In this document: positions 4,800 to 39,731 of the stretch, in pieces
Layout: each line of letters opens with the position of its first letter
Numbering within the stretch: the first letter of the stretch is position 1
NCBI GenBank assembly: GCA_035630755.1
Contig: DASQKC010000044.1
Span: 1-40,262 of the forward strand
DNA: 40,262 nt
DNA from: Actinomycetota bacterium
GTDB lineage: Bacteria > Actinomycetota > UBA4738 > HRBIN12
Direction of reading: 5' to 3'
Translations under genes and position numbers: made by a program
Notes under the pieces: model-generated
Seen by the model: the letters and a program-made list of their open reading frames with translations, nothing else
Database searches by the model: none
Told to the model about the DNA's origin: nothing

Positions 4800-4800
4800 C

Positions 4801-5788: not shown

Positions 5789-5862
5789 CGCCACACGGTA
5801 CCGGCCGCCACCGACCCCTCCGGGCGGGGCGGCGGCGTCGCCGGCGCGCCCCGCCCGCCCAT

Positions 5863-6321: not shown

Positions 6322-6465
6322 AAACAATCCCCTCCCTCTCGTCGGTCGAACGACGCGACCGACCGCTCGACCGTATCGTTGCCCGGCAACCAGACGCAAG
6401 CCCGTGGAGCGGTCGCGAGGATCGATTTGCGCCGACAGGCGTTACCGGCCAGGATGCCCAAACGT

Positions 6466-6660
6466 ATGAGCATCTACCGATTGATCAGGGCAGAGTTCTC
6501 GGTCGACCATGGACGCGAGTGGTGGACGCTCACGTTCGACGATGGCACGGGCCGGGCGATGGTCCGTGCGCCCGAGCCGCCGCCCGAGCCGTTCACGTTG
6601 CTCGACCGTCGCAAGCTCTACTCCGAGCGAGAGCTCGACCGGTTGCGCGCCTCGTCCTGA
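6466..6660 (+). CDS. hypothetical small protein (64 aa)
   Basis: ATG-initiated ORF with reasonable third-position G/C usage. No homology recognised. Confidence 0.3.
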   Translation: MSIYRLIRAEFSVDHGREWWTLTFDDGTGRAMVRAPEPPPEPFTLLDRRKLYSERELDRLRASS

Positions 6661-6694
6661 GGCTCCGGCCTCGGGCACGCTGTACGGTCGGTGC

Positions 6695-7261: not shown

Positions 7262-7458
7262 CTAGCTTCAAGCCCGGCCAACCCGCCAGGCCAGCAACCT
7301 GACGGAGACCCCCCGATCCCCCGAGGTTGTGGCAGGTGGTCGGGCTCGGGAAAAACGGTAACGCTGCGCGATGTCCCTCGCCTATCGGATGACTCACCTA
7401 CAGGGAGAGCGGGGAGTCGTGGCCCCGAGTCATATCGCCTGGCTCGTGCGAGACTCCG

Positions 7459-8763: not shown

Positions 8764-9242
8764 TCTCGTCCTTCCTCGTCGAGGAGCTGCCGGAGCCGTC
8801 GGCGTCCGCGCGACAGGTGGACCCGCACCGTGGCCCGGCCGATGCCGAGCATCTCGGCGATCTCCTCGGTCCGGCAGCCGGCGTAGCCGCGGAGCACGAG
8901 CACCGCGCGCTGGTTGGCGGGAAGCGTTCGGAGCGCCCGCAGGAGTCGCTCGGGGTCATCGTCGAGGGGCTGATCGACCGGAAGCTCGGGGAGCTGGTCC
9001 GAACGGCTCCGGTCGCGGAGCTCACCGCCGGCGATCCGGAAGGCGGCCGTCCAGACCCAGGCACGCGGGTCGTCGACCACGTCACCCCGCCGGAGACACT
9101 GGGCGAACGCCTCCGCGACCGCGTCGTCGGTGATCTCTCGGCTCTGCGTGTAGGCGAAGACCGCTCGCCACAGGCGGGCACCGTCGGTCTCGAAGACGGT
9201 GCCGAGATCATGTCCCGTTGCACGTTCGACGCCCTTCGACAT
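8760..9242 (-). CDS. ECF-type RNA polymerase sigma factor
   Basis: Region 2 (LWRAVFAYTQSREITDDAVAEAF) and region 4 HTH (LPANQRAVLVLRGYAGCRTEEIAEMLGIGRATVRVHLSRGRRRL) are present. Start taken at the ATG at 9242. Confidence 0.85.
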   Translation of the reverse strand: MSKGVERATGHDLGTVFETDGARLWRAVFAYTQSREITDDAVAEAFAQCLRRGDVVDDPRAWVWTAAFRIAGGELRDRSRSDQLPELPVDQPLDDDPERLLRALRTLPANQRAVLVLRGYAGCRTEEIAEMLGIGRATVRVHLSRGRRRLRQLLDEEGRE

Positions 9243-9362
9243 ACACCAGTAAGGGTCTCTCGAAACGAGAACGCGTACCTGAGCCCGGGATGACCCAGGG
9301 CTTCGGGTCGTATCCCCCCGTCGGCACCGCGGTCCCACGAGGGACAGCTCGAGATCGGCGGG

Positions 9363-10313
9363 CTACGTCGCGGTGTCGGCGTTCGCGATCCCGTAGATCC
9401 CTGTCGAGAAGGTCCCGTCACACCGGGAGCGTTCGAAGAGCAGCGTGGTCGAGTCGTCCAACTCCTCGGCGCCGAACGACGAGAACACGTCCCTCCCGTC
9501 CGCGATCGTGGCGATGACCTGCTCGCTGCCTCCGAGCGGGAGACGGACCATGCTCACGTCCGTGCCGCAGACCCACTCGTCGGCCTCGCCGCCCCGAGCG
9601 AAGTAGACCGTGCCGTCGCTCGTGACGGACGAGCTGTACTGCTGCCCACCCGGGTTGGGGATCGTCGTCGTCGCGTCCGTGCTGATCCGGTAGACGAACA
9701 CCTCGCAGTGCGTGAACACGCCCTCCACGTAACGGCAGCGCTCCCACGTCGCCCAGTCGCCGCTGACCTGGTTGGTGACCACGTAGTTGGTTCGGCTGCG
9801 CCGGCTCGAGAGGACCCGCTGCTCCGAGGTATCGAGGTTGAACAGGACGACCCTTGTCCGGTTCTCCCCTCCACGCCCGGTCCTCATGAAGAACAACCAG
9901 TCGCCCGAGAGCGCCGGTTGGGACTCGTCCGCGGCGGTGTTGACCCCGTCGGGGGGCGCGCTCCGCTCGCGCGTCCCGAGGTCGAAGAACCGCAAGTCCG
10001 CGCCGTGCCTCCGGAACCGGTCGTAGACGACGTCCGAGCCGTCGATCCCGACCCCCAGGCTCTCACCCGCCCCGTTCAGGTGGATCCTGGGCTCACCGGC
10101 CGGCTTGACGAACGCGTCCCATCCCGAGTCAAGGGTGAAGTCGACCCACGCGAAGGCGCCACCCGATGCAGCCGGCCCCTGCTCGGCCACGCCGGGGCGG
10201 TTTCGCACGACGACCGGCGTCGCAGCGAAGGCAGCTTCCGCCACCAGGATCAGGCACGCGAACGCGGCGACCGAAGCGAGGCGGGCGCCCGCGGAGCGAC
10301 GACGAAGGACCAT
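9363..10313 (-). CDS. hypothetical secreted protein (possible beta-propeller)
   Basis: Signal peptide MVLRRRSAGARLASVAAFACLILVAEAAFA from the ATG at 10313. Lies upstream of, and co-oriented with, the ECF sigma gene. Confidence 0.6.
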   Translation of the reverse strand: MVLRRRSAGARLASVAAFACLILVAEAAFAATPVVVRNRPGVAEQGPAASGGAFAWVDFTLDSGWDAFVKPAGEPRIHLNGAGESLGVGIDGSDVVYDRFRRHGADLRFFDLGTRERSAPPDGVNTAADESQPALSGDWLFFMRTGRGGENRTRVVLFNLDTSEQRVLSSRRSRTNYVVTNQVSGDWATWERCRYVEGVFTHCEVFVYRISTDATTTIPNPGGQQYSSSVTSDGTVYFARGGEADEWVCGTDVSMVRLPLGGSEQVIATIADGRDVFSSFGAEELDDSTTLLFERSRCDGTFSTGIYGIANADTAT

Positions 10314-10413
10314 CCGTCCGACTCCTCTCAGCGGGCACCGTCGGTGAGACGCGATGACGCTACCCCAGGATCGCCCCACGGCGCAACCCGGCGTCCACGG
10401 AAGCGCGACCCTC

Positions 10414-10450
10414 GGGTGGGAGATGAGGGGCTCGAACCCCCGCTCCTTGT
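10414..10450 (-). repeat. displaced 3' fragment of tRNA-Val (att-like direct repeat of 18414-18450)
   Basis: The reverse complement reads ACAAGGAG-CGGGGGTTCGAGCCCCTCA-TCTCCCA-CCC. It contains the 19-nt T-arm block CGGGGGTTCGAGCCCCTCA identical to the intact tRNA-Val, plus the anticodon-loop side and a diverged acceptor 3' strand. It has no 5' half. Confidence 0.6.
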
Positions 10451-10488
10451 GAGCGTCGTGAGGCCGGGGACGACGTGTGGATCACTCG

Positions 10489-11433
10489 TCACGTCGAAGT
10501 TGGCGGAGGCAGACCTTCGCTTGCTGGCTGGCTGGTTGGCGCGTGAGTGTCCGACGGTGAAGCAGCGCGTCTCCACATCAGGACGAAGAGGAGAACGGTC
10601 GTGATGCCGATGGTGTTGAGGATCGTGATCGACACCGTGACCAACGGGTCGGCTCCGAAGGGGAAGATCATCATCAGGAGCATCGGAGCGATGTTGCGTA
10701 CCGCCGTGGTCGTCTCGGTCGCATGCCTGATCCCCAGGTCATTGACTCGAAGACCGGAAACGAGAAGGTAGCCACACCCGAGGCCGATGAAGGGTCCGGC
10801 GATGGCCGCGATGTAGCTCTCGGTCCCCCAGGTCTGCACGAACAGATCCCAGTACGCAACGAGCGTGAAGTTGAGATTGAAGAGCAGACACAGGATCGCC
10901 ACGCGCACGGCCCACCGCGCCAATGACGGCGTCAGGTCGGGCCACCAGACCCTGAAGCCGCACCCGAGAACCAGCGGCAAGAGCAAGAAGAGCAGCAGCG
11001 GCCACGCAACATCCCAGGCAGAGACCGTGAGTTGCGCATCAACCGCATCGACGGCCAGGGGCAACCCTAGCGGGAGGGCGACGATGGTCGCGACGGTCAA
11101 GACCACTAACAGCAGGGTGGATACGCGGACATCCGCTTTGGCTAACCGGGCGAGGAGTGGAGCGAAAGGCATACCGGCGCACAGGGCTGCAACACAGAAC
11201 CCGACCTTGATCTCTGCAGGGATGGACGAGGCGATCGTCAGCAGATAGCCGATGAACAGGAGCGGGATGAGGACGAAGTTGATCGCCAACGCCCACACGG
11301 CGACCTTCCAATGGGCGAAGGCCTGTGCCAGCAGCTTGCCGACCGATAGCCTGAGACCCAACCCGAACGCGTTCAAGATCACGAAGAGCACCCCGAACCC
11401 GTTGATCAGGACGGTCTCACTGGACTGATTCAT
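10489..11433 (-). CDS. BASS/SBF-like (bile acid:sodium symporter family) membrane transporter
   Basis: About 10 TM segments. The motif AALCAGMPFAPLLARLAKADV resembles the family CPGG...A.GD region. The ATG at 11433 is preceded by GGGAGGG. Clearly lower G+C by eye. Confidence 0.65.
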   Translation of the reverse strand: MNQSSETVLINGFGVLFVILNAFGLGLRLSVGKLLAQAFAHWKVAVWALAINFVLIPLLFIGYLLTIASSIPAEIKVGFCVAALCAGMPFAPLLARLAKADVRVSTLLLVVLTVATIVALPLGLPLAVDAVDAQLTVSAWDVAWPLLLFLLLPLVLGCGFRVWWPDLTPSLARWAVRVAILCLLFNLNFTLVAYWDLFVQTWGTESYIAAIAGPFIGLGCGYLLVSGLRVNDLGIRHATETTTAVRNIAPMLLMMIFPFGADPLVTVSITILNTIGITTVLLFVLMWRRAASPSDTHAPTSQPASEGLPPPTST

Positions 11434-11687
11434 ATCCCTCCCGCTTACGTGGGGTGGACCGGGGAAGGCATCCGCTAGTGGTACTGGGGGTGGAGGTCGT
11501 GCGAGTGATCCCTCGCCAAGGTGATCGCCTCCTCCTTGGTCAGGTACCACCGTCGGCTCGTCTCGCTGCACGCCGCACACAACCACCGCCAGAGGCCCGC
11601 GACACCCTGCTCGGCACGTAGGTGGCTCATCGGACGCCAACGATACCCCGCGAGTTAGAGGTCGGCGCTTCCGCCTAGTGTTCGTGC

Positions 11688-11873
11688 ATGTCGCAGATGG
11701 CCGACCTGCTCGAGCGCGATCGCATCCGCTTGGGGTTCACGGTCGGCCAGATCGCCTACCGGCTCGGCATCTCGCCCGCGGAGTACCACTGCCTGATCGC
11801 CGGCGCACCGATCACGAGCTACGACACCTGGGAGCGGATCTCCGACCTGTACGGGTGGCCGGTAGCCCGCTAA
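11688..11873 (+). CDS. small Xre-type helix-turn-helix protein (intact copy of the head module)
   Basis: 61 aa. LLERDRIRLGFTVGQIAYRLGISPAEYHCLIAG fits the HTH_3 pattern. Its first ~70 nt recur at 13515 and 38023. Confidence 0.7.
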   Translation: MSQMADLLERDRIRLGFTVGQIAYRLGISPAEYHCLIAGAPITSYDTWERISDLYGWPVAR

Positions 11874-11883
11874 GTTCCGTTCG

Positions 11884-12222
11884 ATGACCGACAACTTCTC
11901 GACCGAGGTCAACGCAACGGACGAGGCCACGGTCATCCACGTCCGCGGCGAGATCGACATGGCGACCGCGGGACGCCTGCGAGACGCCATCGAACCCCAC
12001 ATGGGTCCCAAGCAGACCATCGTCTTGGACCTCTCCGAGGTCGAGTTCATGGACTCTTCGAGCCTGCACGTGCTCGTCCAAGCGCGCGGTCGACTCACCG
12101 AGAGCGGCGGCTCACTGGTCCTCCGCAACCCCTCGCGCGCCGCGCACCGGGTGCTCACCGTCGGCGGCGCCACCGATCTCCTCGAAACTGACGCCCGGGA
12201 TCACCCCTCAGATTCAAACTGA
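11884..12222 (+). CDS. STAS-domain anti-sigma-factor antagonist (SpoIIAA-like)
   Basis: 112 aa. VIHVRGEIDMATAGRLRDAI...IVLDLSEVEFMDSSSLHVLV carries the conserved phosphorylatable DSS motif. Confidence 0.8.
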   Translation: MTDNFSTEVNATDEATVIHVRGEIDMATAGRLRDAIEPHMGPKQTIVLDLSEVEFMDSSSLHVLVQARGRLTESGGSLVLRNPSRAAHRVLTVGGATDLLETDARDHPSDSN

Positions 12223-12325
12223 CCCACTATCTAGGTACCCTTCGCCGGATGAACCCCGCTGCGATCGGGGCCGGCTGGGACCTCGTGAAGCGGCTCGGCC
12301 AGACCACGCCCGCACCCTCCTCGCG

Positions 12326-12498
12326 GTGCTCGAGCTCCCCGACGATGCGCGGTGGGCGTTCACGTCCTCGATGTACCAGCGCGAGGACGGGCTGGCGCTC
12401 GCCGAGGTGCTGGCCGACGTGGAGTCTGACCTCACGAGTCTAACCTCACCGGCAAGACGCGGGAGCGGCTGATCGCGGGGCTGCATGCCGCCCTCGAC
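12326..12498 (+). pseudogene. tail-module copy B1: small ORF disrupted by a 14-bp tandem duplication
   Basis: From the GTG at 12326 it reads LELPDDARWAFTSSMYQREDGLALAEVLADVESDLT. The duplication GAGTCTGACCTCAC/GAGTCTAACCTCAC (12422-12449) then shifts the frame. The sequence TRERLIAGLHAALD continues out of frame. Confidence 0.5.
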
Positions 12499-12609
12499 GG
12501 CCGTGTCCCGACCAGTTCAGGGCGGAGAAACCGAACCCCGGGATGACCACGGCGCTGTCGGGCGAACGGCCGCCTTGACGCCGGAGCGGGAGAGAGTCAC
12601 GCCCTAGAC

Positions 12610-12900
12610 ATGCGCCGGGAATTGGTGCTGGTGGTTGTCGCGGCCGTCATCTTCGCCGCAGCGATCGGCGTCGCGACCGCGTATCCGAGTCATGCCTACC
12701 AGACGGCCACTGAGATGTCTGCGGCGCACACGTACTGCAGTACGGTCCGCTCATTCGAGGGTGTGGAGACCCCTTGGAAGGTTGATCGACGGTGGCCGCT
12801 GAGAGCCGGCACCCTTGTGTCCGGGCTGGTGTTGGGGCTGGGGTCCCTCGCGGCGGCCCGTGCGTCGCGAGCACCTGATGCAACGAGCCGGTGGACCTGA
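12610..12900 (+). CDS. hypothetical small membrane protein
   Basis: 96 aa with two hydrophobic segments (LVLVVVAAVIFAAAIGVATA and LVSGLVLGLGSLAAA). No homology recognised. Confidence 0.35.
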   Translation: MRRELVLVVVAAVIFAAAIGVATAYPSHAYQTATEMSAAHTYCSTVRSFEGVETPWKVDRRWPLRAGTLVSGLVLGLGSLAAARASRAPDATSRWT

Positions 12901-13142
12901 GCGGGCCGGGCCGGTGCTCAACGCGAAGGACTCAATCGGCCGCCACGCGCGGCTCGAGGACGACGACCGCCGTTCCCTGTGGGCGTCGCGCGGCGTAGTC
13001 GCGGTATGGTGGCGGCCGGGTCGTCGCTGAGGCAGCGGTTCGGTTCGCGCTCTGGTGCGGATCGTTCCACGCGCTGACCAGGCTCCCCCGGCGGTCGGGG
13101 AACCCTCCGATCCGCGAGCGATGCAAGGGCCCCGGACGTGCC

Positions 13143-13177
13143 CCCACCCGGCGAGCCCGGTAGGCTCGCCGGGTGGG
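13143..13177. promoter_or_regulatory. perfect 15-bp stem / 5-nt loop hairpin covering a start codon
   Basis: CCCACCCGGCGAGCC-cggta-GGCTCGCCGGGTGGG. The 3' arm contains the GTG at 13173 of the downstream ORF. Confidence 0.6.
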
Positions 13178-13460
13178 ACTCAGCCCCGAGGACGCGGCCG
13201 CTGCCTACCTGGTCGACGGCCCCCAACACGTGCGCGACGCGGTTGGCGCAGAGCCGCCCGGCCACTACCACGCGTGGTTCACCGACCTCGAAGGCGAGCG
13301 GTTCGAGCGCTACCTGACGGAGACGGGGCGGGCGTCGATCCTCGACCGCATCGATCGAGGCGAGCGTTCGTTCACCGCGTTCGAGCTCGAGGAGTGGACG
13401 GTAGCGCCACACATCGATGCGCTCCTGGCCCGCTACGACTCGGAGGCCGGCGAAGGCTGA
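13173..13460 (+). CDS. hypothetical protein (95 aa)
   Basis: ORF with good G+C third-position usage. No family recognised. The GTG start is buried in the hairpin at 13143-13177. Confidence 0.45.
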   Translation: MGLSPEDAAAAYLVDGPQHVRDAVGAEPPGHYHAWFTDLEGERFERYLTETGRASILDRIDRGERSFTAFELEEWTVAPHIDALLARYDSEAGEG

Positions 13461-13514
13461 CCGCGGCGCGACGATCGCGCGCGACATCGCCGCGACCCTG
13501 GCGTCACGCGCGCC

Positions 13515-13612
13515 ATGTCGCAGATGGCCGACCTCCTCGAGCGCGATCGCGAGCGGATGGGGTTCACGGTCGGCCAGGCCGCCTGATAGCGGGACTGCAC
13601 GCGGCGCTCGAC
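13515..13612 (+). pseudogene. head::tail fusion remnant (A2::B2, no cargo)
   Basis: ATGTCGCAGATGGCCGACCTCCTCGAGCGCGATCGC...GGGTTCACGGTCGGCCAGGCCGCC is head-module sequence (23 codons). It runs directly and out of frame into CTGATAGCGGGACTGCACGCGGCGCTCGAC, the tail-module end (LIAGLHAALD). Confidence 0.55.
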
Positions 13613-13635
13613 CAGGCGCCGCTAGGGTGACTGGG

Positions 13636-14133
13636 ATGAGCGAAGGGATCGAAGTGGTCGAAGCCACCGTGGACGACTGGGCTCGCGTGAAGGATGTGCG
13701 CCTCCGCGCCCTGGCGGATGCGCCCGAAGCGTTCGCGCGGCGGCTGGAGGACGAACGAGAACGGGCGCCCTCGGAGTGGCGGGCTCGGCTGGAGAACCCC
13801 GACGCCGCCACCTTCCTCGCGGTGGCCGATGGAGCGACGGTCGGAATGGCCGGTGTGTTCGTCGCAGCGGACGACGATACCTTGCGCAACTCGTCTCGAT
13901 GTGGGTTGCCTCGGAGTTCCGGCGAAGCGGGACGGGAAGGGCGCTCGGTCAAGCCGTCCTCGATTGGTCACGCGCCCCGGGACCTCCCCGTTGAGTTGTG
14001 GGTCACCGAGACGAGCCTGCCCGCACGGAGCCTCTACGAGGGGCTCGGGTTCTCCGCCTCAGGCGAAGAGCAACCGCTTCCCTCCGATCCACGACTGAAC
14101 GTGGTCCAAATGGTCAGGAGCGGGAGCGGTTGA
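13636..14133 (+). pseudogene. GNAT N-acetyltransferase with two compensating frameshifts
   Basis: Frame 1 gives MSEGIEVVEATVDDWARVKDVRLRAL...VFVAADDD. The acetyl-CoA motif segment AQLVSMWVASEFRRSGTGRALGQAVLDW is readable only in another frame (about 13880-13985). Frame 1 then resumes with VELWVTETSLPARSLYEGLGF. The stop TGA at 14131-14133 lies inside tail module B3. Confidence 0.6.
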
Positions 14134-14141
14134 TCGCGGGG
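14119..14141 (+). repeat. tail-module copy B3 (core only)
   Basis: AGCGGGAGCGGTTGATCGCGGGG has one mismatch to the core. It is flanked by the GNAT pseudogene stop and by the DUF1345 GTG start at 14146. Confidence 0.6.
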
Positions 14142-14145
14142 TTAG

Positions 14146-14817
14146 GTGACCGCGCGTAGCATCAACCGGGTGGAGGAGGTCCGAGGCGAGCCCCGGTGGC
14201 CGATGACGCTCACCGTCGTGTTCATCATCGTGCTGATCAGCCTGTTGCCCGAGCGCTTGAGCCCCCTGCCGACGTGGGTGTTCCCGGGCATGCTAACGAT
14301 CCTGCTGATCGCGCTCGTCGCCACCGATCCCGGCAAGATCACGAAGACGGAACGGGCGCTGCGCTGGCTCTCGATCGCCCTCGTCGTCGTGCTGGCCACG
14401 AGCGCGCTCTCCGCGACGGTGCTGCTGATCCGCGATCTGATCGAGGGTTCCCCGATCACGGCGAACGGGACGACGCTGCTCGCGACCGGGATGTCCGTCT
14501 GGGCGATCAACATCGTGGCGTTCGCGCTGCTGTATTGGGAGTTCGACTGCGGCGGACCGGCGGTGCGTGCCCATGGGATGCCCCCGTCCCCGGATCTCGC
14601 GTTCCCGCAGCAACTGAACCCTGAGGTCGCGCCGCTCGCGTGGCGGCCGCAGTTCGTCGACTATCTGTACGTGGGGATCACGGACGCGGTGGCGTTCAGC
14701 CCCACGGACGCGATGCCGCTCGCTCCCTGGGCGAAGGTCGCGATGGCGATCGAAGGAGTGACCTCCCTCGTGATCCTGGGCCTGGTGGTCGCCCGCGCCG
14801 TCAACGTCTTCACGTGA
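14146..14817 (+). CDS. DUF1345-type integral membrane protein
   Basis: 223 aa. EPRWPMTLTVVFIIVL..., four or more TM helices and WEFDCGGP...FVDYLYVGITDAVAFSPTD resemble DUF1345. Confidence 0.65.
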   Translation: MTARSINRVEEVRGEPRWPMTLTVVFIIVLISLLPERLSPLPTWVFPGMLTILLIALVATDPGKITKTERALRWLSIALVVVLATSALSATVLLIRDLIEGSPITANGTTLLATGMSVWAINIVAFALLYWEFDCGGPAVRAHGMPPSPDLAFPQQLNPEVAPLAWRPQFVDYLYVGITDAVAFSPTDAMPLAPWAKVAMAIEGVTSLVILGLVVARAVNVFT

Positions 14818-14821
14818 TGCG

Positions 14822-14865
14822 CCGCGGGAGCGGCTGATCGCGCGCTGCGAGCCGCGCTCGGATGA
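14822..14865 (+). repeat. tail-module copy B4
   Basis: CCGCGGGAGCGGCTGATCGCG-CGCTGCGAGCCGCGCTCGGATGA starts 5 nt after the DUF1345 stop. It has a 2-nt gap relative to the consensus tail. Confidence 0.6.
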
Positions 14866-14911
14866 TGCCCAGTGATGCCGTCGGTCATGAGCGGATCATA
14901 GTGTTCACCCG

Positions 14912-15831
14912 ATGAACCGGACGGGGAGAGCGCACGAGGTCGAACCGACGCCCACGGACATCTCGGTCGCCCTCCGCGTGCGCGCGGAGATCGGAGAGTC
15001 GCCCGTGTGGAGCGAGTTGACCGAGGAGCTCTACCTCGTCGACATCGCCGGGCAGGCGGTCCATCGGTACCGCCCGTCGGACGGTCGTCATCAACGGTTC
15101 GGGCTGCCGGATCAGGTGACCTCCGTCTCGATCCGTGAGCGGGGCGGGCTCGCCCTCTCGCTCCGCAAGACGTTCGCGTTCTTCGATCCGGATACCGGCG
15201 ACCTGGAGGTCCTCGACGATCCCGAGCCCGACCGCCCGGGGAACCGGTTCAACGATGCCCGGTGCGATCCGCAGGGACGGCTCTGGGCGGGCACGATGAG
15301 CGCCGACGACTGGTGGGCACCGACCGGCGCCGTGTACCGGCTCGATGCCGATCGACGGAGCACGCGCATGATCGACGACGTCCGGTGCTCGAACGGGACC
15401 GGATGGAGTCCCGACGGTCGCACGATGTACCACACGCAGAGCTTCCGCTACGCGATCGACGCCTACGACTTCGATCCCGAAACCGGCACGATCGCGAACG
15501 CGCGACCCTTCGTGACGCTCCCGCCAGAAGGCGGTGGCTTCCCCGACGGCCTGACGGTGGACGAGGAGGGGTTCGTCTGGAGCGCGCAGCCCATCTACGG
15601 ACGTCTCGTCCGATACGACCCGGAGGGCGGAATCGACCGGATCATCTCGCTCCCAGTCTCTCGCGAGGGACCAGCTGCGCCTTCGGGGGTCCCGACCTCC
15701 GCACCCTCTACATCACGACCGCCACCGAGACGCTGACGGCGCCCCAGCTCGCGGAGGAGCCGCTCGCCGGGAGCGTGCTCGCTTGCATGCCGGGGACCCC
15801 GGGCATGCCCGCGCCGCTGTTCGCCGGCTGA
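14912..15831 (+). pseudogene. SMP-30/gluconolactonase/LRE-like protein with a 1-nt frameshift near 15665
   Basis: GESPVWSELTEELYLVDIAGQAVHRY and following blades are in frame 1 up to ...RIISLPVS. The family C-terminal motif TSCAFGGPDLRTLYITTA is readable only in the frame of track ORF 15262-15831. A sequencing error cannot be excluded. Confidence 0.65.
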
Positions 15832-15973
15832 CCGGGACCAGGTAGGTTAGCGACCGACCGCCACCTGGTACTCCTGCAACGAGGCCGCGCACCGGGCGGG
15901 GGTCGACGCCTCGTACCTGGAACCACTGGTTGGAGTGGACCTGAGAAGGACTGCGTAGCGAGGAGAATCGCCA

Positions 15974-16540
15974 ATGCCCAAGGTAGTGCTGTACACGCTG
16001 ATGTCACTAGACGGAGCCGTCGACGATCCGCGGCGCTACTTCCCGGACAGCACACGCATGGTCGCCGGCCCACCGGTGTTCGACCCGGTGATGGCCGACC
16101 TGGAGGCGCGGTTGATCGGCAACCAGGATGCGGTGCTGCTGGGTCGTAACACGTTCGACGAGTGGTCGCGCTACTGGCCGACGTCCGACGAGCAGCCGTT
16201 CGCCGACTTCATCAACGGCACCAAGAAGTACGTCGTCACGTCGACGCCACTGACGGATCAGTGGGGTCCCGCAGAGGCATTGGCCGGTCCGGTAGCCGAC
16301 ATCGTCGATGGCCTCAAGGCTCGCGTCGGCGGTGACATCGGCATCCACGGCAGCATCACGTTGGCGCAGTCTCTCCTCGCCGCGGGACTCGTCGACGAGT
16401 TGCAGCTGGCGGTCGGTCCGGTCCTGGATCCCATGGGCCGACGGCTGTTCGCGGGCCTCGGCGACTCGCGCCAGCTGGACCTGCAGAGTGCGACCCCCAC
16501 GCCAGGCGGCACCGTCTGGATCACCTACCGCGTCCCGTGA
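15974..16540 (+). CDS. dihydrofolate reductase-family protein (RibD C-terminal domain type)
   Basis: 188 aa. MPKVVLYTLMSLDGAVDD...LLGRNTFDEW...IHGSITLAQSLL. A distant paralogue of 6695-7261. Confidence 0.75.
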   Translation: MPKVVLYTLMSLDGAVDDPRRYFPDSTRMVAGPPVFDPVMADLEARLIGNQDAVLLGRNTFDEWSRYWPTSDEQPFADFINGTKKYVVTSTPLTDQWGPAEALAGPVADIVDGLKARVGGDIGIHGSITLAQSLLAAGLVDELQLAVGPVLDPMGRRLFAGLGDSRQLDLQSATPTPGGTVWITYRVP

Positions 16541-16582
16541 CCTTATGCGCCGCCTTGGGCGCATCCGACTAACCGCACCATC

Positions 16583-16733
16583 GTGCGGGCCCCACACGGC
16601 GGCGGTTTCATCTCGTCGATGTACCTCCGCGACGACGGCGAGTGGCTCGCCGAGGTGCTGGCCGACGAGGAGCAGACCTCACCGGAAGACGCGGGAGCGG
16701 CTGATCGCGGGGCTGCGGGCGGCGTTGGACTAG
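16583..16733 (+). pseudogene. tail-module copy B5: near full-length small ORF with two 1-nt deletions
   Basis: From the GTG at 16583 it reads RAPHGGGFISSMYLRDDGEWLAEVLADEEQ. The frame is then lost: GAGCAG-ACCTCACCGG-AAGACG against consensus GAGCAGGACCTCACCGGCAAGACG. TRERLIAGLRAALD-TAG follows in another frame. Confidence 0.55.
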
Positions 16734-17025
16734 GCCCCAGCTTGGGTGGGCCCATCGAAGTGATGCGGACGGAGATCGACCTTGACCTGGGTCGACCGGA
16801 CGCCATGGCAGTGCAGGCCGAGAAGCACTTCGCTCTCGCCGACGCCTGCGACTCCCCGCTGCTGGTCGATCCGTCCTGGCGGGCCGCGGCGGCGTTCACC
16901 GCGACGCCGCTGTGGCCCTCGTCCGCGTCGCTCGGATGATCGAGCGTCGGCAGAAGCGGCACGCCGGCGCCCGGTCCAAGCATTCAGATCTTCCCGACCG
17001 CTACCACTGCGTACGCGTCGCGCTG

Positions 17026-17232
17026 ATGGATCACAAGTACGAGGTCCGCTTCGTCAGGGGCGAGCCGGAGACCCCGCCGACCAAGGACGAGCCGATCGCG
17101 ATCGCCCGCGAGGCCGCCCGCAAGCTGGGCGTCCCGAACGCCGAGAGCGAGCCGCTCTACCGGGTGGGCAGGAACTCCCACACCGGTGAGGTCTGGGCCT
17201 ACGTGGAGTGGACCTGGGAGGGGCTTCGGTAA
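17026..17232 (+). CDS. small conserved hypothetical protein (68 aa), paralogue of 5582-5788
   Basis: Translates as MDHKYEVRF...ARKLGVPNAESEPLYRVGRNSHTGEVWAYVEWTWEGLR. The ATG at 17026 is chosen by alignment with the paralogue. Confidence 0.55.
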   Translation: MDHKYEVRFVRGEPETPPTKDEPIAIAREAARKLGVPNAESEPLYRVGRNSHTGEVWAYVEWTWEGLR

Positions 17233-17245
17233 TCGTCGAACGAGA

Positions 17246-17635
17246 CTACGGGGTGTCGCCGCCTGGGATGTCGATGACCCGGCCTATGCGCAGCCGGCGT
17301 CCCCGCCATCCGTTGGCGGTAGCGGTGATGCTCGTCCTCTGCAGGCCCCTCAGCACGTCTTCCATGGAGACCGCCGCGTGGATCTGGACAACCTCGACCT
17401 CGTCGTCATCCTGGGGGGTGCCGTCGGGTCCCTGCGGCACCACGTAGGCCGTCGCGACGCCCATCCCCTCGAGGCTCGAGCCCCCGCCCACGTGGAAGGC
17501 CACCACGTGGTACTGCCCGTCCGGCAAGCCGAACAGGTCCTCGATGCTGTCCGGGTGGGGTCCGTCGAAGGCGCACGTCCCGATGTAGTCGTTGTACTGA
17601 GTCTCGGCGCGTTCCATGTGCCCCGGGGTGTCCAT
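17246..17635 (-). CDS. hypothetical protein (129 aa)
   Basis: ATG-initiated ORF convergent with 17026-17232, with acceptable codon usage. No family recognised. Confidence 0.45.
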   Translation of the reverse strand: MDTPGHMERAETQYNDYIGTCAFDGPHPDSIEDLFGLPDGQYHVVAFHVGGGSSLEGMGVATAYVVPQGPDGTPQDDDEVEVVQIHAAVSMEDVLRGLQRTSITATANGWRGRRLRIGRVIDIPGGDTP

Positions 17636-17731
17636 GATGCCTCCTTGCTAACGAGTGCTACGAACTCGCGCATACGAAACGATACGGGGACTTGGCGTCT
17701 CAAGGACGATTCTTGCGTGCTCGCGCACCCA

Positions 17732-17784
17732 GAGCAGGACCTCACCGGGAAGACGCGGAGTGGACCTGGGAGGGGCTCCGCTAA
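17732..17784 (+). pseudogene. chimeric remnant: tail-module 5' half fused to the 3' end of the 68-aa protein gene
   Basis: GAGCAGGACCTCACCGGGAAGACGCGG encodes EQDLTGKTR. It joins GAGTGGACCTGGGAGGGGCTCCGCTAA, which encodes EWTWEGLR-stop as at 17206-17232. The junction lies in a shared GGAG. Confidence 0.5.
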
Positions 17785-18233
17785 CTACCCTCCTCAACGG
17801 CCTCACCGGGGTGATGCATCGACAGCCGCCCCTCGCGCTCTGCATCGCGGTCAACGGTGAACCCGAGCCTCTCGTACAGAAGGCGAGCACGAGCGTTGTT
17901 GGTGAAGACGTGCAACCGGACCGGCCGACCCCGCCCGACCAGGTCCCGGATGAGAGCAGACCCGATGCCGCGACCCTGTGCTTCGGGCAGGATCTCGATT
18001 CGCCCCAGGTAGAGATGGTCGCCTTCGTCGCTCACGTCCAGGACGCCGATCGCCGTACCGTCGTCATCCTCGACGATCGAGAGCCGATCGGGCTCGAACC
18101 ATCCGGCATGGTGCCTGCGCTGGTGGTCGGCATCCCAGCCGCCGTACATGGACTCCACGTACTCGCGCATCGTCGCTTCATTCAGGTGGAAGCAGAACGC
18201 GTCGTCTCCAGCGGTCGCCGGGCGAAGCCTCAC
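17781..18233 (-). CDS. GNAT N-acetyltransferase
   Basis: 150 aa. LYLGRIEILPEAQGRGIGSALIRDLV...ARARLLYERLGFTV is the acetyl-CoA binding motif A/B pattern. Confidence 0.8.
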   Translation of the reverse strand: MRLRPATAGDDAFCFHLNEATMREYVESMYGGWDADHQRRHHAGWFEPDRLSIVEDDDGTAIGVLDVSDEGDHLYLGRIEILPEAQGRGIGSALIRDLVGRGRPVRLHVFTNNARARLLYERLGFTVDRDAEREGRLSMHHPGEAVEEGS

Positions 18234-18267
18234 CCTTCGGATCGTATCGGAGGCAGCATCCGTCGCT

Positions 18268-18339
18268 GACGCGGGAGTCCGACCTCCCGGCCAGACGCGG
18301 GAGCGGCTGATCTCTGGGCTGCACGCCGCGCCGGACTGA
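18268..18339 (+). repeat. tail-module copy B7 (tRNA-proximal)
   Basis: GACGCGGGAGTCCGACCTCCCGGCCAGACGCGGGAGCGGCTGATCTCTGGGCTGCACGCCGCGCCGGACTGA encodes ...TRERLISGLHAAPD-stop. It overlaps the 5' region of the minus-strand GNAT gene. Confidence 0.55.
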
Positions 18340-18393
18340 GGACTGGCACCGAAGCTGGTACCGATCCCGGACCCCCGCGGGGCCGGGTAAACC

Positions 18394-18411
18394 GAACCCG
18401 CAGGTAGATGG
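18394..18411 (+). repeat. 18-mer GAACCCGCAGGTAGATGG, copy next to tRNA-Val
   Basis: Identical to 37029-37046. Ends 2 nt from the 3' end of tRNA-Val. Confidence 0.8.
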
Positions 18412-18413
18412 GG

Positions 18414-18486
18414 TGGGCGGTGAGGGGCTCGAACCCCCGACCTTCTCCTTGTAAGGGAGACGCTCTACCAGCTGAGCTAACCGCCC
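18414..18486 (-). tRNA. tRNA-Val (anticodon TAC)
   Basis: The reverse complement folds as a 73-nt cloverleaf. Acceptor GGGCGGT/ACCGCCC, D arm GCTC-AGCTGGTA-GAGC, anticodon arm TCTCC-CTTACAA-GGAGA, variable AGGTC, T arm GGGGG-TTCGAGC-CCCTC, discriminator A. CCA is not encoded. Confidence 0.9.
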
Positions 18487-23614: not shown

Positions 23615-24312
23615 GCGAGGGTCTCGAAGGACGACCCCGGGGCGTGCGTCGCGCGACCGGCGCCGTGCCGGACGTGGACCGCGCCGAGCCCGTGGACCGT
23701 CCAGCGCTCGCCGTCGCCGACGATCGCGGTCCGTTCGTCGATGCCGACGAACCAGGCGCCCTCGGGCAGCCGCGAGGACATCCACCAGGCGGCGCCGGGG
23801 ATGCGCCGGACCTTGTCCCAGTGCACCCCGAATGCGACGTCGGGGACGAGGCCTAGGCCGAAGCGCCACGACGATCCCGCGGTGCCACCCACGCGGGCGC
23901 GGCTCACCACCATCGCGCCGGCGCTGCAGCCCGCCCACACCGCCCCGCGATCCATCGCGCGCTCGATCCCGGCGAGCAACGGCGAGGCGTGCAGCACCTC
24001 GGCGAGGTGCGTGGGCTTCCCGCCCGAGAAGTAGATCAGCGACGCCGACGCCGCACGGGTGACCAGGTCCTCGCGCCGGGCGTCGGCGGGCGTCTTGACG
24101 GGAAGGACCTCGGCGGACACGCGAGCCTCCGCGAAGTGGTCGAGGCCCATCCGACCCCAGCGGTCGAAGACGTCATCGCCCTCGGTCGCGCTCGCGGTGG
24201 GGAGGATGGCGACGGAGCCGTCGCCCACGGCGTCGCGCAGGACGGAAGCCTCGACGTCGTGGGTCCAGGGCTCGAACTCACCCGAGCCGAGCAGCAGGAA
24301 CGTCCTCGCCAT
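23599..24312 (-). CDS. peptidase S51 / cyanophycinase-dipeptidase E-like protein
   Basis: 237 aa. LIYFSGGKPTHL and the nucleophile elbow WAGCSAGAMV (GxSAG) are present. Its 3' end overlaps convergent ureC by 16 nt. Confidence 0.7.
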   Translation of the reverse strand: MARTFLLLGSGEFEPWTHDVEASVLRDAVGDGSVAILPTASATEGDDVFDRWGRMGLDHFAEARVSAEVLPVKTPADARREDLVTRAASASLIYFSGGKPTHLAEVLHASPLLAGIERAMDRGAVWAGCSAGAMVVSRARVGGTAGSSWRFGLGLVPDVAFGVHWDKVRRIPGAAWWMSSRLPEGAWFVGIDERTAIVGDGERWTVHGLGAVHVRHGAGRATHAPGSSFETLAQANR

Positions 24313-25246
24313 CGGCGGGGAGGCTACCCGGTCCGCCGACGCGGCCGGCGCGGTGCTTGCCTCCCTTGCCGCCCTCCTCCGAGGGCGTGTCGGGCCCGCG
24401 CGCGCGCCAGATCGCCACGACCACCGCGCCCCACCCGACGAGCCCCGCGAGCGTCCACCACGCGACGTTCACGAAGGGCACGAGACCGAGCGCCGCCGCG
24501 ATCGCCCACCCGGCGAACAGCGCCCCGGTCCGCGACCGCGGTTCGCGCACGACGAGTCGGCCGATCGTCCACGTCGTGGCCGCGATCCCGACCATCGCGA
24601 ACAGCCACCACGCGAGCAGCAGCGCCACGCCGAGCGGCAGGCCGAGGACCGATGCGGTCAGGAGGAGGCCGGCCAGGGCCACGCCGAGCGCCGCGAGCAG
24701 CCCCCAGCCGGCCGCGGCGAACGGCGCGGTCCGGCCCGCCTGCCCCACCCGTTCCAACCCCCGCGGCGCGACCAGCAGGAGGAAGGCCAGCAGGAGCAGC
24801 GTCGACACGGCGAAAGCGGCCGGCGCGAGCAGCGCCCCGATCGTCCCGACGGCCGAGCCGAGGGAGTACCGCACGCCCTGGGTCACGCCGCCGGCCACCT
24901 GCGCGCCGGCCTCGACCTCGGCGGTCTCGCCGGCCAGGACGCTGCCACCCACCTGCGCGGTCGGGCGCAGCCGGACCCTGCCCGACACCGACACCACGTC
25001 CCCGCGGACCTGGCCGGCCACCGTGATCAAGCCGCGGAGGACGATCACGTCGCCGTCGACGACGCCGTCCACGGTCACGTCGCCGCGCACGACGACCACC
25101 TCGCCGGCGACGTCTCCCGCAGGGACGTCGACGTCGCCCACGAGCACCACCTGCGGGTCGGCCTCCCGCGGCGCGTCGGCCTGCCCCCACGCCGCCGTCA
25201 GGATCAGCGCGGCGAGACCGAGGACGGTGGGGACGGCGCGGCGCAC
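24278..25246 (-). CDS. membrane protein with N-terminal bactofilin-like repeat region
   Basis: Signal peptide, then repeated GDV..V.G.V motifs (VGDVDVPAGDVAGEVVVVRGDVTVDGVVDGDVIVLRG...). These are followed by about 5 TM helices. Confidence 0.55.
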   Translation of the reverse strand: MRRAVPTVLGLAALILTAAWGQADAPREADPQVVLVGDVDVPAGDVAGEVVVVRGDVTVDGVVDGDVIVLRGLITVAGQVRGDVVSVSGRVRLRPTAQVGGSVLAGETAEVEAGAQVAGGVTQGVRYSLGSAVGTIGALLAPAAFAVSTLLLLAFLLLVAPRGLERVGQAGRTAPFAAAGWGLLAALGVALAGLLLTASVLGLPLGVALLLAWWLFAMVGIAATTWTIGRLVVREPRSRTGALFAGWAIAAALGLVPFVNVAWWTLAGLVGWGAVVVAIWRARGPDTPSEEGGKGGKHRAGRVGGPGSLPADGEDVPAARLG

Positions 25247-36949: not shown

Positions 36950-37026
36950 GGGGCGGTAGCTCAGTCGGTAAGAGCAGCGGACTCATAATCCGTCGGTCGC
37001 AGGTTCGAGCCCTGCCCGCCCCACCA
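36950..37026 (+). tRNA. tRNA-Met (anticodon CAT; elongator-type by sequence, Ile2 not excluded)
   Basis: 77-nt cloverleaf. GGGGCGG-TA-GCTC-AGTCGGTAA-GAGC-A-GCGGA-CTCATAA-TCCGT-CGGTC-GCAGG-TTCGAGC-CCTGC-CCGCCCC-A-CCA. CCA is encoded. Confidence 0.9.
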
Positions 37027-37028
37027 CT

Positions 37029-37046
37029 GAACCCGCAGGTAGATGG
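37029..37046 (+). repeat. 18-mer GAACCCGCAGGTAGATGG, copy next to tRNA-Met
   Basis: Identical to 18394-18411. Begins 2 nt after the encoded CCA. Confidence 0.8.
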
Positions 37047-37159
37047 CCCTCTAGGGCGCTCCGAGGTCAACGGCCGGCGCTGGTGCGCATCGCGGTATGG
37101 GGATACTTCGCGGTCGCCGTCGTCCGGGCCGTGGGGATCTCCAGCGTGAGGTTTACCTG

Positions 37160-37375
37160 ATGGCCGAGCGAACGATTCCGACCGATATCGGCTACGGCCG
37201 CGCGCCGTCACCCCCGACCGCCGAGGCCGCGGCGCTCGAGTACTGGTCCAACCGCATCAGCTTCGGGTCCTTCGCGCCGCGCCCCCCGATCGAACGGTGG
37301 CGGCCCGACCAGCGCGAGCGGTTCGAAGCCGAGCTGCGGCGACTGGAGCGTCACGGCCCCGGCACAGCTCCATAA
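37160..37375 (+). CDS. hypothetical small protein (71 aa)
   Basis: ATG-initiated ORF (MAERTIPTDIGYG...). No family recognised. Confidence 0.35.
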   Translation: MAERTIPTDIGYGRAPSPPTAEAAALEYWSNRISFGSFAPRPPIERWRPDQRERFEAELRRLERHGPGTAP

Positions 37376-37537
37376 GCGTTCGCGGGGTCCTTGTCCGCCC
37401 CGAGAACGGCCCGGCCCTCCGCCGGGCGTCATCGAATGGGAGGAGCGCCCCGGGTCCACCCGGGGCTTCCTCTCGGTCGCTGCGGGCGTCGTGGCGTGTG
37501 GGGTGCGGCTTATGCTTCGGCGCGATCAGGGGGGGTC

Positions 37538-38012
37538 ATGCGCATGGAGCAACGGAAGCTCGCCGGGGTCTGGGCGGTCGGTGCTCGGGTCGCGCTCCTC
37601 ATCGGCTTGTCGCTTCCCTGGCTCGTCCGCCCGGGCAATGATGCCGACCCCCTCGCGGTCGAACGGTCGACCTGTGGGAGCTCATGGTCGCCGTCGGTCT
37701 CGCCGTGACCGCGATCGGGATCGCCCTGCTCAGCTCGCGGGCATCGGCGATCCGGCTCGGCTGGGCGCGCTCCTGGTCCTCGCCTTCGTCGCGCTCGCCG
37801 TCGTGCTGGCCGAGTACGCCGAGCACGCCGAGTACGCCGAGGAGTACGCCACCTTCGATTCGTCGGACTTGGAGGTAGGGTCCGGCATGGTCACGGTGAT
37901 CTTCGCCGCAGCAGCGACGGTCGTGGACGCGTCGTTCGTGCTGCTGCGCCAAGGAGGTCCCCCCAGCGGTCGGACCCCCTGTGCCGCCGCCTCCGTCGTG
38001 AGGCCGCGCTAG
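37538..38012 (+). pseudogene. membrane-protein remnant spread over three frames
   Basis: Hydrophobic helices appear successively in different frames: LAGVWAVGARVALLIGLSL, then MVAVGLAVTAIGIALL, then LGALLVLAFVALAVVLA and MVTVIFAAAATVVDASFVLL. Contains a 9-bp repeat run at 37809-37850 (EYA-EHA-EYA-EEYA). Confidence 0.35.
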
Positions 38013-38022
38013 CCTGCGGGCC

Positions 38023-38436
38023 ATGTCACAGATGGCCGCCCTCCTCGAGCGCGATCGCATCCGCTTCGGGTTCACGGTCGGCCAGGCCGCCTTACCGGCT
38101 CGCTCTTTCCCGACCGCCCTCCGCGCGAGAACCAGTCTCCGGATTGACCCGAGGGTTCGTCCGCGCGGGTCGATGGGGTCGCAGGTATACGCTCGCCATA
38201 GATGCAACGGGTCAAGTCGATCTTGGTCAGGGTTTGGGCATGGCTCTCTCGCCACCCAAACGACGATCCCGATCGGCCCCAGCACGCGCCGTTCTCGTCT
38301 GGCAGGCCGCACGGACAAGGCGGGGCGGGCGGCTAGCGGCGAGGCCATCTCACCCCCGGAGTACCGGCGCCTGATCGCCGGGGAGCCGGTCCAACGCGCG
38401 GGCTGCCGGTTGACCCAACGCGCGGGCGCTCGTTAG
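38023..38436 (+). pseudogene. head-module copy A3: Xre-type HTH gene interrupted by a ~240-bp insertion
   Basis: MSQMAALLERDRIRFGFTVGQAA matches 11688 onward up to about 38102. Homology resumes at about 38344 (ISPPEYRRLIAG against ISPAEYHCLIAG). Confidence 0.55.
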
Positions 38437-38437
38437 C

Positions 38438-38989
38438 GTGCGGACCGTGCGCCGCATCATCGTCCTCGCCCTCGCTCTCGCCGTCGTGCTGGGCGCCGCC
38501 GTGCCGTCCGCCGGCCGTGGCGGGATCCCCCGGGGCCGCTACGCGATCGGGGACTCGGTGATGCTCGGCGCGGCCGAGCACCTACGAGCCCGCGGGATCC
38601 AGGTCCACCCCCACGCCCGCGCGCGGCAGTTCGGCGACGCGCTCGGGATCGTCCGGCACCTGAAGCGCGACGGCCGCCTGAAGCGCAAGATCATCGTCCA
38701 CCTCGGCACGAACGGGGTCGCGATCGACCCCGACAACTGCGATGCGCTGGCGCGGTCCGTCGGCCGGGACCGCCGCCTGTTCTTGGTCACGATCAGGATC
38801 GAGCGGACCTACCGGCGGGCGCAGAACGCCCGGCTCACCCAGTGCGCGAACCGGCACCGCAACACACGGCTGATCGACTGGTACGCCTACAGCCACGACC
38901 ACCCGGGCTGGTTCTACAGCGACGGCTACCACCTGAACGGCACCGGCCGAGTCCGCTACGCCGATCTGCTCGATCGGCGGACCAGCTAG
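38438..38989 (+). CDS. secreted SGNH-hydrolase-like protein
   Basis: Signal peptide. SGNH blocks YAIGDSVMLG, VHLGTNG and SDGYHLN. Confidence 0.7.
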   Translation: MRTVRRIIVLALALAVVLGAAVPSAGRGGIPRGRYAIGDSVMLGAAEHLRARGIQVHPHARARQFGDALGIVRHLKRDGRLKRKIIVHLGTNGVAIDPDNCDALARSVGRDRRLFLVTIRIERTYRRAQNARLTQCANRHRNTRLIDWYAYSHDHPGWFYSDGYHLNGTGRVRYADLLDRRTS

Positions 38990-39033
38990 TCCCGCCCAAG
39001 CTGCCCCGTTCCGCTGGCGCAGCTCATCCCACG

Positions 39034-39119
39034 CCGAGGTGCTGGCGGATGTCGAGCAGGACCTCACCGGCAAGACGCGGGAGCGGCTGATCGCGGGGCT
39101 GCGCGCGGCGCTGGACTAA
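39034..39119 (+). repeat. tail-module copy B8 (5'-truncated)
   Basis: GCCGAGGTGCTGGCGGATGTCGAGCAGGACCTCACCGGCAAGACGCGGGAGCGGCTGATCGCGGGGCTGCGCGCGGCGCTGGACTAA encodes AEVLADVEQDLTGKTRERLIAGLRAALD-stop. It has no start codon and lacks the SSMY part. Confidence 0.6.
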
Positions 39120-39241
39120 CCCACTTGTCCGGCGCTTGTCCGGCGAGACACACCGATAACCGGCGCGAATCCTTGAGTAACGTTCAGCACCAAAGCCGCA
39201 GGTAGAACGGGGTGCGGCGCCCTCGACCATAGCGGGGTGAA

Positions 39242-39290
39242 CGGACTCATTATCCGTCGGTCGCAGGTTCGAGCCCTGCCCGCCCCACCA
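39242..39290 (+). repeat. direct repeat of the tRNA-Met 3' half (attR-like)
   Basis: CGGACTCATTATCCGTCGGTCGCAGGTTCGAGCCCTGCCCGCCCCACCA matches 36978-37026 at 48 of 49 positions. The upstream sequence cannot form the acceptor 5' strand or the D arm. Confidence 0.85.
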
Positions 39291-39731
39291 ACATCTACCT
39301 GTAGGAACGCTGCTCGCTCGCGATCGGTGCACGGTGATCGCTGCCAAGATCGCTGCCATCTCGGCGGTAGCCGGCCCCATCTCAGCGGGAATGCGGGTCG
39401 GTCCGGGGAAACGGGTGATCTACCGCGGGGACCAGGGGGTGGGGAGAAAGTCTGAGCCGTCGGTGAGTGCGTTGGGAGTCCCAGCGCACACATCTGCCGA
39501 TTCCCCGATCCGTGCCACCCCGCCGGGGTCCCGCGGGGCCTGGATCGCTGCCAACGGCACCAAATTCACCGACAGCCCATCGGTCGACCCGCCTCCGGAA
39601 CGGAGACCCGCAGCTCGGTGACCTCGTCACCCCGAGGGCATCCGGCGTCGCACCGGATCCGCCGCGACGGTCCCCGCCAGCACCACGACGGCACCCATGG
39701 GCACCCCCCGGGCCGTGTGCCGGCCCATCCC

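Follow-up and report, generated by a model that had tools for sequence, protein, structure and literature searches.

A short motif at the tRNA junctions of integrase-less islands in uncultured Actinobacteria as a candidate arm-type or accessory attachment site

The window, by which we mean the whole 40,262-nt stretch of DNA analysed here, has a GC content of ~72%, falling to 0.68 and 0.71 in two islands versus 0.75 in the flanks. Each island adjoins an intact tRNA gene, tRNA-Val(tac) or tRNA-Met(cat), as placed by ARAGORN and Rfam (Table 1). The accessory genes lie in two low-GC stretches and encode, according to Pfam, an SBF transporter, STAS, GNAT, DUF1345, SMP-30 and RibD_C proteins, and no integrase, transposase or transfer gene was detected by Pfam in either island. 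At the far end of island 2 lies a displaced tRNA-Met half (39242-39290), 49 nt long and 98% identical to 36978-37026; the identity stops at the CCA, directly beyond which both copies diverge. The degenerate tRNA-Met copy to which this half belongs still scores 22.6 bits as an Rfam tRNA, and its homologue in the related contig L096 scores 30.2 bits. For tRNA-Val the direct repeat is weaker (~40 nt at 82% identity). Direct repeats of tRNA 3' ends thus bound DNA of deviant GC with accessory cargo, as in tRNA-integrated genomic islands, and att sites stand on both sides while recombination and conjugation genes are absent, as in CIME-type islands. Two same-strain contigs (L023 and L024) share 99.7-99.8% identity with the window and contain the same islands; no polymorphic or empty island site was found in them. 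The DNA to the right of island 2 is also island-like, with a copy of a recurrent small gene (the tail, see below) on the other strand just past the window end, and the flank distal to the displaced tRNA-Met half is likely, if not proven, to be an older island.

Table 1. Islands, tRNA genes and motif copies in the window, and tRNA-adjoining 18-mer copies elsewhere
Feature	Position	Strand	Remarks
Decayed 3' fragment of tRNA-Val-like gene	10414..10453	-	82% identity; tentative far boundary of island 1
Island 1	10454..18393	.	GC 0.676; tentative boundaries; small cargo genes and repeated head (HTH_31)/tail fragments; no integrase
11-mer AAACCGAACCC	12528..12538	+	Remnant: 5' part of motif plus upstream flank; 30 nt past tail pseudogene
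Tail fragment (3' end of ~80-aa gene)	18275..18337	+	57 nt upstream of 18-mer
Exact 18-mer GAACCCGCAGGTAGATGG	18394..18411	+	TGG end adjoins tRNA-Val 3' end; island 1 right end, P'-arm side
tRNA-Val(tac), intact	18412..18486	-	attL-type junction, island 1
tRNA-Met(cat), intact	36950..37026	+	attL-type junction, island 2
Island 2	37027..39241	.	2.2 kb; GC 0.707; no integrase
Exact 18-mer	37029..37046	+	2 nt past tRNA-Met CCA; island 2 left end, P' arm
71-aa ORF	37160..37375		Island 2
Interrupted HTH head	38022..38381		Island 2
Word CGCAGGTATA (CGCAGGTA at 38180)	38180..38189	+	Inside segment interrupting head gene
ORF	38438..38989		Island 2
Tail	39032..39118		Island 2
Doublet TTGTCCGGCG-C-TTGTCCGGCGAGACAC	39126..39150	+	Second att-associated repeat
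Motif variant AAAGCCGCAGGTAGAACG	39192..39209	+	Core exact at 39196-39206; island 2 P-arm side
Degenerate tRNA-Met copy	39211..39290	+	3' half 39242-39290; 5' half decayed
Inverted motif variant (GTTCCTACAGGTAGATGT on - strand)	39291..39308	-	1 nt past displaced tRNA-Met half
18-mer at tRNA 3' end	L043		Window's own tRNA-Val locus
18-mer at tRNA 3' end	L047		Intact tRNA-Ser(tga); identical flank beside tRNA-Ser half in L032
18-mer at tRNA 3' end	L041; L053/L057/L076		Two versions of tRNA-Lys(CTT) half

The same 18-mer adjoins both intact tRNA genes. It occurs exactly twice in the window, each time on the + strand while the two tRNAs lie on opposite strands, as the original prediction had stated. 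The expected count is 0.01, two copies were seen in 0 of 100 dinucleotide shuffles of the window, and no further match with up to three mismatches is present in the window. The predicted spacing of 2 nt from the tRNA 3' end is correct for tRNA-Met, where the 18-mer follows in forward orientation after CT; at tRNA-Val the copy, read as its reverse complement, abuts the annotated 3' end at 0 nt (tRNA...ACC immediately followed by CCATCTACCTGCGGGTTC). Exact copies of an 11-nt core, CCGCAGGTAGA, stand at 18398, 37033 and 39196, and with up to one mismatch the core gives seven matches in the window versus 0.51 expected. The third exact core belongs to a variant a few nucleotides upstream of the degenerate tRNA-Met-like 5' half, and this variant and an inverted one (CATCTACCTGTAGG, 39292-39305) bracket the tRNA-Met 3' half. 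Such an inverted pair had been predicted, as had three other features that we indeed observed: a related word near 38178, inside the insertion, which is possibly, and tentatively, a decayed junction copy; the 11-mer shared by 18389-18399 and 12528-12538, each site downstream of a tail repeat, the latter of which we read as a decayed junction; and the absence of the motif beside the decayed tRNA-Val fragment. Among the copies the left half varies (TCC, TTC, AAC) and an asymmetric part, CCGCAGGT(A/CA)G, is conserved; the core also has a sister form, CCGCAGGTCAG, and an imperfect palindrome, ACCCGCAGGT, can be seen in the motif.

Public data were scanned for the exact 18-mer. Among species-representative genomes (596 Gb) there were 22 single matches versus ~17 expected by chance, with a tRNA adjoining none of the 22; a further 67 loci came from metagenomes, most of them a single Actinomyces coding region, and viral contigs gave 2 unrelated matches. 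Viral-contig scans for the P-arm variant and for the TGTYCGGCG doublet described below returned nothing. When pooled, these 91 exact matches represent 38 distinct contexts, and a tRNA 3' end is abutted in 4 of them, where far below 0.01 is expected. The orientation at tRNA-Ser is that at tRNA-Val and the orientation at tRNA-Lys is that at tRNA-Met, and the flanks outside the 18 nt are unrelated between contexts. All 18 nt are identical in five independent contexts, whereas a typical arm site needs less; this full identity is partly a matter of ascertainment, because the searches demanded exact matches. In two Actinomycetota MAGs an exact copy (L004 3159-3176 and L022 6066-6083) sits shortly before a DUF4446 gene, within housekeeping intergenic sequence, where it comes after a TATACT box and is followed by C(C)TGTTTC; no tRNA or island was found near these copies, and they may reflect chance or an unrelated use of the word. 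On the 3.45-Mb chromosome of an actinomycete MAG, an intergenic-looking stretch holds the 18-mer (L003 1316-1333, minus strand) and, 41 nt upstream of it, a partial copy in inverted orientation, CATCTACAGGGG.

The islands contain repeated fragments of two small genes, an XRE/HTH_31 gene of 61-66 aa (the head), intact at 11688-11873, and a gene for an ~80-aa protein found in metagenomes only (the tail). Heads have lost their 3' ends and tails their 5' ends, and the pairs bracket unrelated small cargo genes at 11688-18337 and 38022-39118 of the window and also in L025, L026, L096 and L097; L096 contains up to nine heads and six tails in 19.5 kb, on both strands. No integrase was found in the four related head/tail arrays (10-37 kb). 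The layout is cassette-like and unexplained, and we know of no described counterpart of these modules. A confident five-helix fold was predicted for the tail protein (pLDDT 85.7), which had no PDB match (E >=1.6) and no Pfam or PHROG match, and its analyses gave no hint of a DNA-binding or excisionase role. Two tails in the window precede motif copies by 57 and 75 nt. The motif as a 3' flank of the tail gene was ruled out, with only the two tRNA-adjoining tails carrying it. Since the motif was not found in L025, L026 and L097, which are rich in heads and tails and have no tRNA fragments, it belongs to the tRNA junction and not to the tail. The DNA that interrupts the third head (38151-38400) matches L025 (302-52) with 98% identity despite differing surroundings, which suggests a recent exchange of a short non-coding piece.

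For a test independent of the motif, further contigs of the lineage were fetched through proteins and not through the motif itself, namely the tail family, the 71-aa ORF beside the motif copy at 37029 and the product of the gene that precedes tRNA-Met. With the window excluded, 7 of the 26 CCGCAGGT matches fell within 60 nt of tRNA-derived segments, which make up 1.2% of the sequence (p = 1.6e-8); with the window included, the count was 10 of 36 (p ~1e-11). This clearly bears out the predicted association with tRNA genes and island ends. The core was found on both sides of the tRNA-derived att core, in both orientations, and the motif stands beside at least six tRNA species (Val-tac, Val-cac, Met, Ser, Lys and Ala); at other Actinomycetota tRNAs it is absent. 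Copies bracket the att core in island 2, L096, L100, L102 and L041/L057. In L102, an intact tRNA-Ala is followed by GAAACCGCAGGTCAGACG, and the displaced 49-nt half has TTTCCGCATGTCAG before it and CCGCAGGTCAGGGG after it; the displaced tRNA segments are 49 nt long with 96-98% identity and reach from the anticodon loop as far as the 3' end. L096 repeats the whole unit at 39090-39310 of the window, with the tail end, the TTGTCCGGCG doublet, AAAGCCGCAGGTAGA, the degenerate tRNA-Met and CCATCTACCTGCGGGAAC, and the outer edge of the inverted motif marks the exact end of its homology to the window.

Two relatives carry the motif together with an integrase. In L100, which comes from the same sample as the window, the end of a tyrosine-integrase element reads TTTCCGCAGGTAGACCCA directly before the 5' end of tRNA-Val(cac), placing the motif 4 nt from that end, and another copy is located at 25 nt from the displaced core. 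The integrase of L100, the sole complete related one, has 295 aa with SAM-like (SAM_1/SAM_4) and catalytic domains, and no arm-binding domain was recognisable in it. This element (3504-11838) duplicates the 5' 37 nt of tRNA-Val(cac) and not the usual 3' part, and a separate small island, whose displaced half is at 1432-1478, lies 3' of this tRNA. In L107, tRNA-Met is followed by CCATCCGCGCAGGTCAGAGGG, then by a TGTYCGGCG doublet and then by the C-terminus of a tyrosine integrase, whose N-terminus is missing at the contig end. This contig is one of four further ones with the orthologous tRNA-Met locus; they stand for three relatives, L104 and L105 being one and the same sequence. L103 has a 4.4-kb island with a degenerate motif variant there, and L104/L105 provide a near-empty site with one small gene between tRNA-Met and the conserved cupin-fumarase genes. 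No motif was found in the tRNA-Met 3' flank of L104/L105 or at the tRNA-Asn of that locus. Since L104/L105 are without the motif and L103 and L107 have variants of it, the motif arrives with the inserted DNA, in some relatives together with an integrase.

The doublet, which in L107 consists of TGTTCGGCG twice beside the integrase gene, is also conserved in L096. In its general form, TGTYCGGCG-N1-2-TGTYCGGCGAG(A/G)CAC, it occurs only at three tRNA-Met att arms (39126-39150; L096 11670-11700; L107 3878-3905), and it is a candidate for a further binding site, such as one for an excisionase or an integrase arm domain.

RNA-level readings were also considered. At the motif sites, Rfam gave tRNA matches only, even with permissive thresholds, and no terminator-like site was predicted. 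Trailers with a single motif showed no significant fold (folding z of +1.9 to -1.7), and the inverted pair around the pseudo-tRNA-Met, which can pair in an 11-bp helix (z = -2.4 in the window and -4.0 in L096), is not general among motif sites. A known RNA family, an intrinsic terminator or a hairpin was rejected on the lack of any Rfam match beyond tRNA, the lack of a terminator and the occurrence of both orientations.

Taken together, the motif is a real and specific att-associated site of an undescribed tRNA-integrating island family, a type of feature that is itself known. It is moderately likely that it acts as an arm-type or accessory protein-binding site in the att sites of a family of small elements in uncultured high-GC soil Actinobacteria. 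The arm-type or accessory reading follows from the position of the motif outside the identity segment, ~45-60 bp from the anticodon-loop crossover region. Within the reconstructed attP at least two copies flank the att core, and the motif is element-borne and missing from near-empty L104/L105, with the copies after displaced halves requiring a tandem-island reading. The tRNA-Met 3' half kept at 96-98% identity while the 5' half decayed is the pattern expected under selection on the att core. The original suggestion of a recombinase arm or end-binding site accordingly gains from the specificity for tRNA-island junctions, from the adjacent integrases in L100 and L107 and from the layout shared with pACPL (below), but the islands of the window encode no recombinase and the L100 integrase no recognisable arm domain. 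The companion claim that the motif is island DNA and not chromosomal agrees with its absence from near-empty L104/L105; however, because the 39292 copy lies distal of the displaced tRNA-Met half, a restriction to island DNA holds only if the distal flank is an older island.

Under the arm-type reading, the circular form would contain an attP with a tRNA-derived core, usually the stretch between anticodon loop and 3' end but in some cases an entire tRNA copy that has decayed, bracketed by motif copies ~3-35 nt upstream and 0-6 nt past the tRNA 3' end. Integration would regenerate the tRNA, leaving one motif directly after it in attL (18394, 37029) and the other before the displaced tRNA half in attR (39192). 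With tandem stacking, the proximal copy of the next island would follow the displaced half (39292), and this copy would fit the proximal arm of an older island behind island 2. The attP of island 2 would then read motif 39192, a few nucleotides, the decayed tRNA-Met with its intact 3' half, CT and motif 37029; the excision junction in the circle would join 39209 via the tRNA core to 37029, and the tRNA-Met site without island 2 would be tRNA-Met followed by ACATCTACC. We suppose that an integrase, a recombination directionality factor or an architectural factor would bind the motif and that the bound motif would help to build the recombination complex whichever tRNA the core copies. The islands of the window, to judge from their gene content, might be either relics or elements moved in trans by an integrase encoded elsewhere, so that their present-day mobility is put forward here as putative. 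A comparison of the reconstructed attP with known phages and plasmids matched only in its tRNA part.

Some observations speak against an arm site. At one and the same position beside the tRNA, the motif is seen pointing in either direction, which would be unusual for a single defined arm site, and the islands themselves encode no cognate tyrosine integrase with an arm-binding N-terminal domain. The lack of integrases in the four related arrays as well, the L100 domain composition, the copies in L004/L022 and the identity over all 18 nt are further points on that side.

The proposed anatomy has parallels in known systems. The attP of lambda-type heterobivalent integrases carries the arm sites P1, P2 and P'1-3. 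Like these, the sites described here lie outside the crossover core, tens of bp away, on both arms, and are common to attP, attL and attR; unlike these, they number one or two per arm, vary in orientation and come with no identified N-terminal domain of a cognate Int. CIMEs are integrase-less, att-flanked islands that can be mobilised in cis or in trans and accrete in tandem at tRNA genes. The window islands resemble them in being att-bounded, in lacking recombination and transfer genes and in their apparent tandem build-up at one tRNA hotspot, a likeness that concerns island structure, derivation from a larger conjugative element and mobility being putative here. Among actinobacterial elements, the arm repeat of pSAM2 has the consensus GTCACGCAG(A/T)TAGACAC. 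As in pSAM2 and pACPL, the short repeats in our contigs lie just outside a tRNA-derived att identity segment, on both sides, in Actinobacteria hosts and with targeting of tRNA 3' ends. In pACPL of Actinoplanes sp. SE50/110, two 21-nt repeats, GTCACCCAGTTAGT(T/C)AC(C/T)CAG, lie on either side of the attP identity segment, and the authors likened them to the Int-bound arm-type sites of pSAM2 (PMC3364876). The pACPL repeats and the core CCGCAGGTAGA have C-S-CAG-N-TAG in common, and the likeness of pSAM2 and pACPL to this core is short, at 7-10 positions. In contrast to these two elements, the islands described here are 2-8 kb long without int, xis, rep or tra genes, their motif occurs in both orientations beside at least six tRNA species, and the sole complete related integrase has no recognisable arm-binding domain.

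A more speculative extension, which we regard as rather unlikely, is that the motif might be the handle of a cassette-like system, in which many tiny integrase-less modules, with one or a few cargo genes flanked by a truncated HTH head and by an 80-aa tail, would be captured and stacked, at any tRNA gene that their core copies, by a trans-acting recombinase that recognises the motif and not the tRNA. If true, this would amount to an integron-like accretion platform on tRNA genes in an uncultured actinobacterial lineage, and the use of the site in both orientations and of both strands by the head/tail arrays would be the outcome of inversion and reshuffling that are frequent at these sites.

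Three other readings of the motif are possible, each less supported than the arm-site reading. It is unlikely that the motif is a transposon-like end or a XerC/D-like crossover site, with insertion occurring exactly at tRNA boundaries and the tRNA halves carried along as passengers. Indeed, the TAGA(TGG) end faces the tRNA boundary, with the island interior opposite, at the window tRNA-Val, at 39192 and 39292 and in L096, L047 and L100; direct copies bound island 2, and the L100 integrase is a short XerC/D-like protein. However, the duplicated segments are classic pieces from anticodon loop to 3' end (49 nt, 96-98%) with the motif outside the identity, the sequence of island 2 diverges straight past the CCA on both copies, the motif is not oriented like terminal inverted repeats, and transposases are absent from the window islands.

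We consider it improbable that the motif is an operator through which an island DNA-binding protein, be it the 61-66-aa XRE-type head or another small protein, controls expression at the border. The islands do encode a small HTH_31 protein, the motif holds the imperfect palindrome, and its orientation-independence would suit a dimeric regulator, but it is the palindromic left half that is unconserved and the asymmetric part that is kept. Moreover, L025, L026 and L097 have heads and neither tRNA fragments nor the motif, and L102 and L107 have the motif without a complete head (L102 has one 28-nt trace). Similarly improbable is a native tRNA-flanking signal, for processing, termination or promoter-proximal function, that was captured with the tRNA pieces. 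It would account for the precise abutment on tRNA ends, before the 5' end (L100) or after the 3' end, for the leader and trailer copies that can pair around the pseudo-tRNA-Met, and for the motif following displaced halves in L100, L102 and the window. Against it stand the absence of the motif from near-empty L104/L105 and the tRNA-Asn there, from the outer flank of the old tRNA-Val fragment and from other Actinomycetota tRNAs, the occurrence of both orientations after 3' ends, which misfits an RNA signal, and the lack of any predicted hairpin, terminator or Rfam family. Finally, chance or a generic REP-/MITE-like dispersed repeat is effectively refuted: the number of exact public matches is near that expected, but no shuffle ever yielded two exact copies within 40 kb, independent contigs repeatedly have the motif precisely adjoining tRNA ends, the enrichment near tRNA-derived segments has p <1e-7, and the window shows two exact copies and a few variants, all at tRNA junctions, without the flanking homology or high copy number of MITE or REP elements.

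The anatomy of the motif is ordinary for mobile elements, and the surrounding head/tail arrays are more unusual. If the arm-type reading is correct, the motif would provide a sequence tag for the ends of undescribed tRNA-targeting islands in uncultured soil Actinobacteria, with which islands could be delimited in metagenome assemblies, and it would help to find the recombinase and to study the build-up of integrase-less cargo modules at tRNA hotspots. An accessory site that stays nearly unchanged while the tRNA core is swapped among at least six species would also bear on how target specificity changes.

Other repeats were seen in the window. An inverted repeat of 154 nt (78% identity; 5583-5736 and 17078-17231) marks paralogous small ORFs, and the ORF ends at 11447-11478, 17201-17232 and 17753-17784 share the C-terminal ...EWTW(E/T)G(L/I)R before the stop; together they look like another repeated small-gene family in and near the islands. 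A perfect 28-nt palindrome at 4800-4827, between the convergent genes 4236-4799(+) and 4846-5427(-), probably serves as a bidirectional terminator. A minus-strand ORF (24278-25246) contains three tandem repeats of 51 nt with 65-67% identity at 25002-25152. Three diverged ~400-nt repeats at 32543-33398, inside a 791-aa sensor gene (32126-34501), are probably tandem PAS domains, and a similar PAS kinase adjoins the motif-bearing tRNA-Ser in L047.
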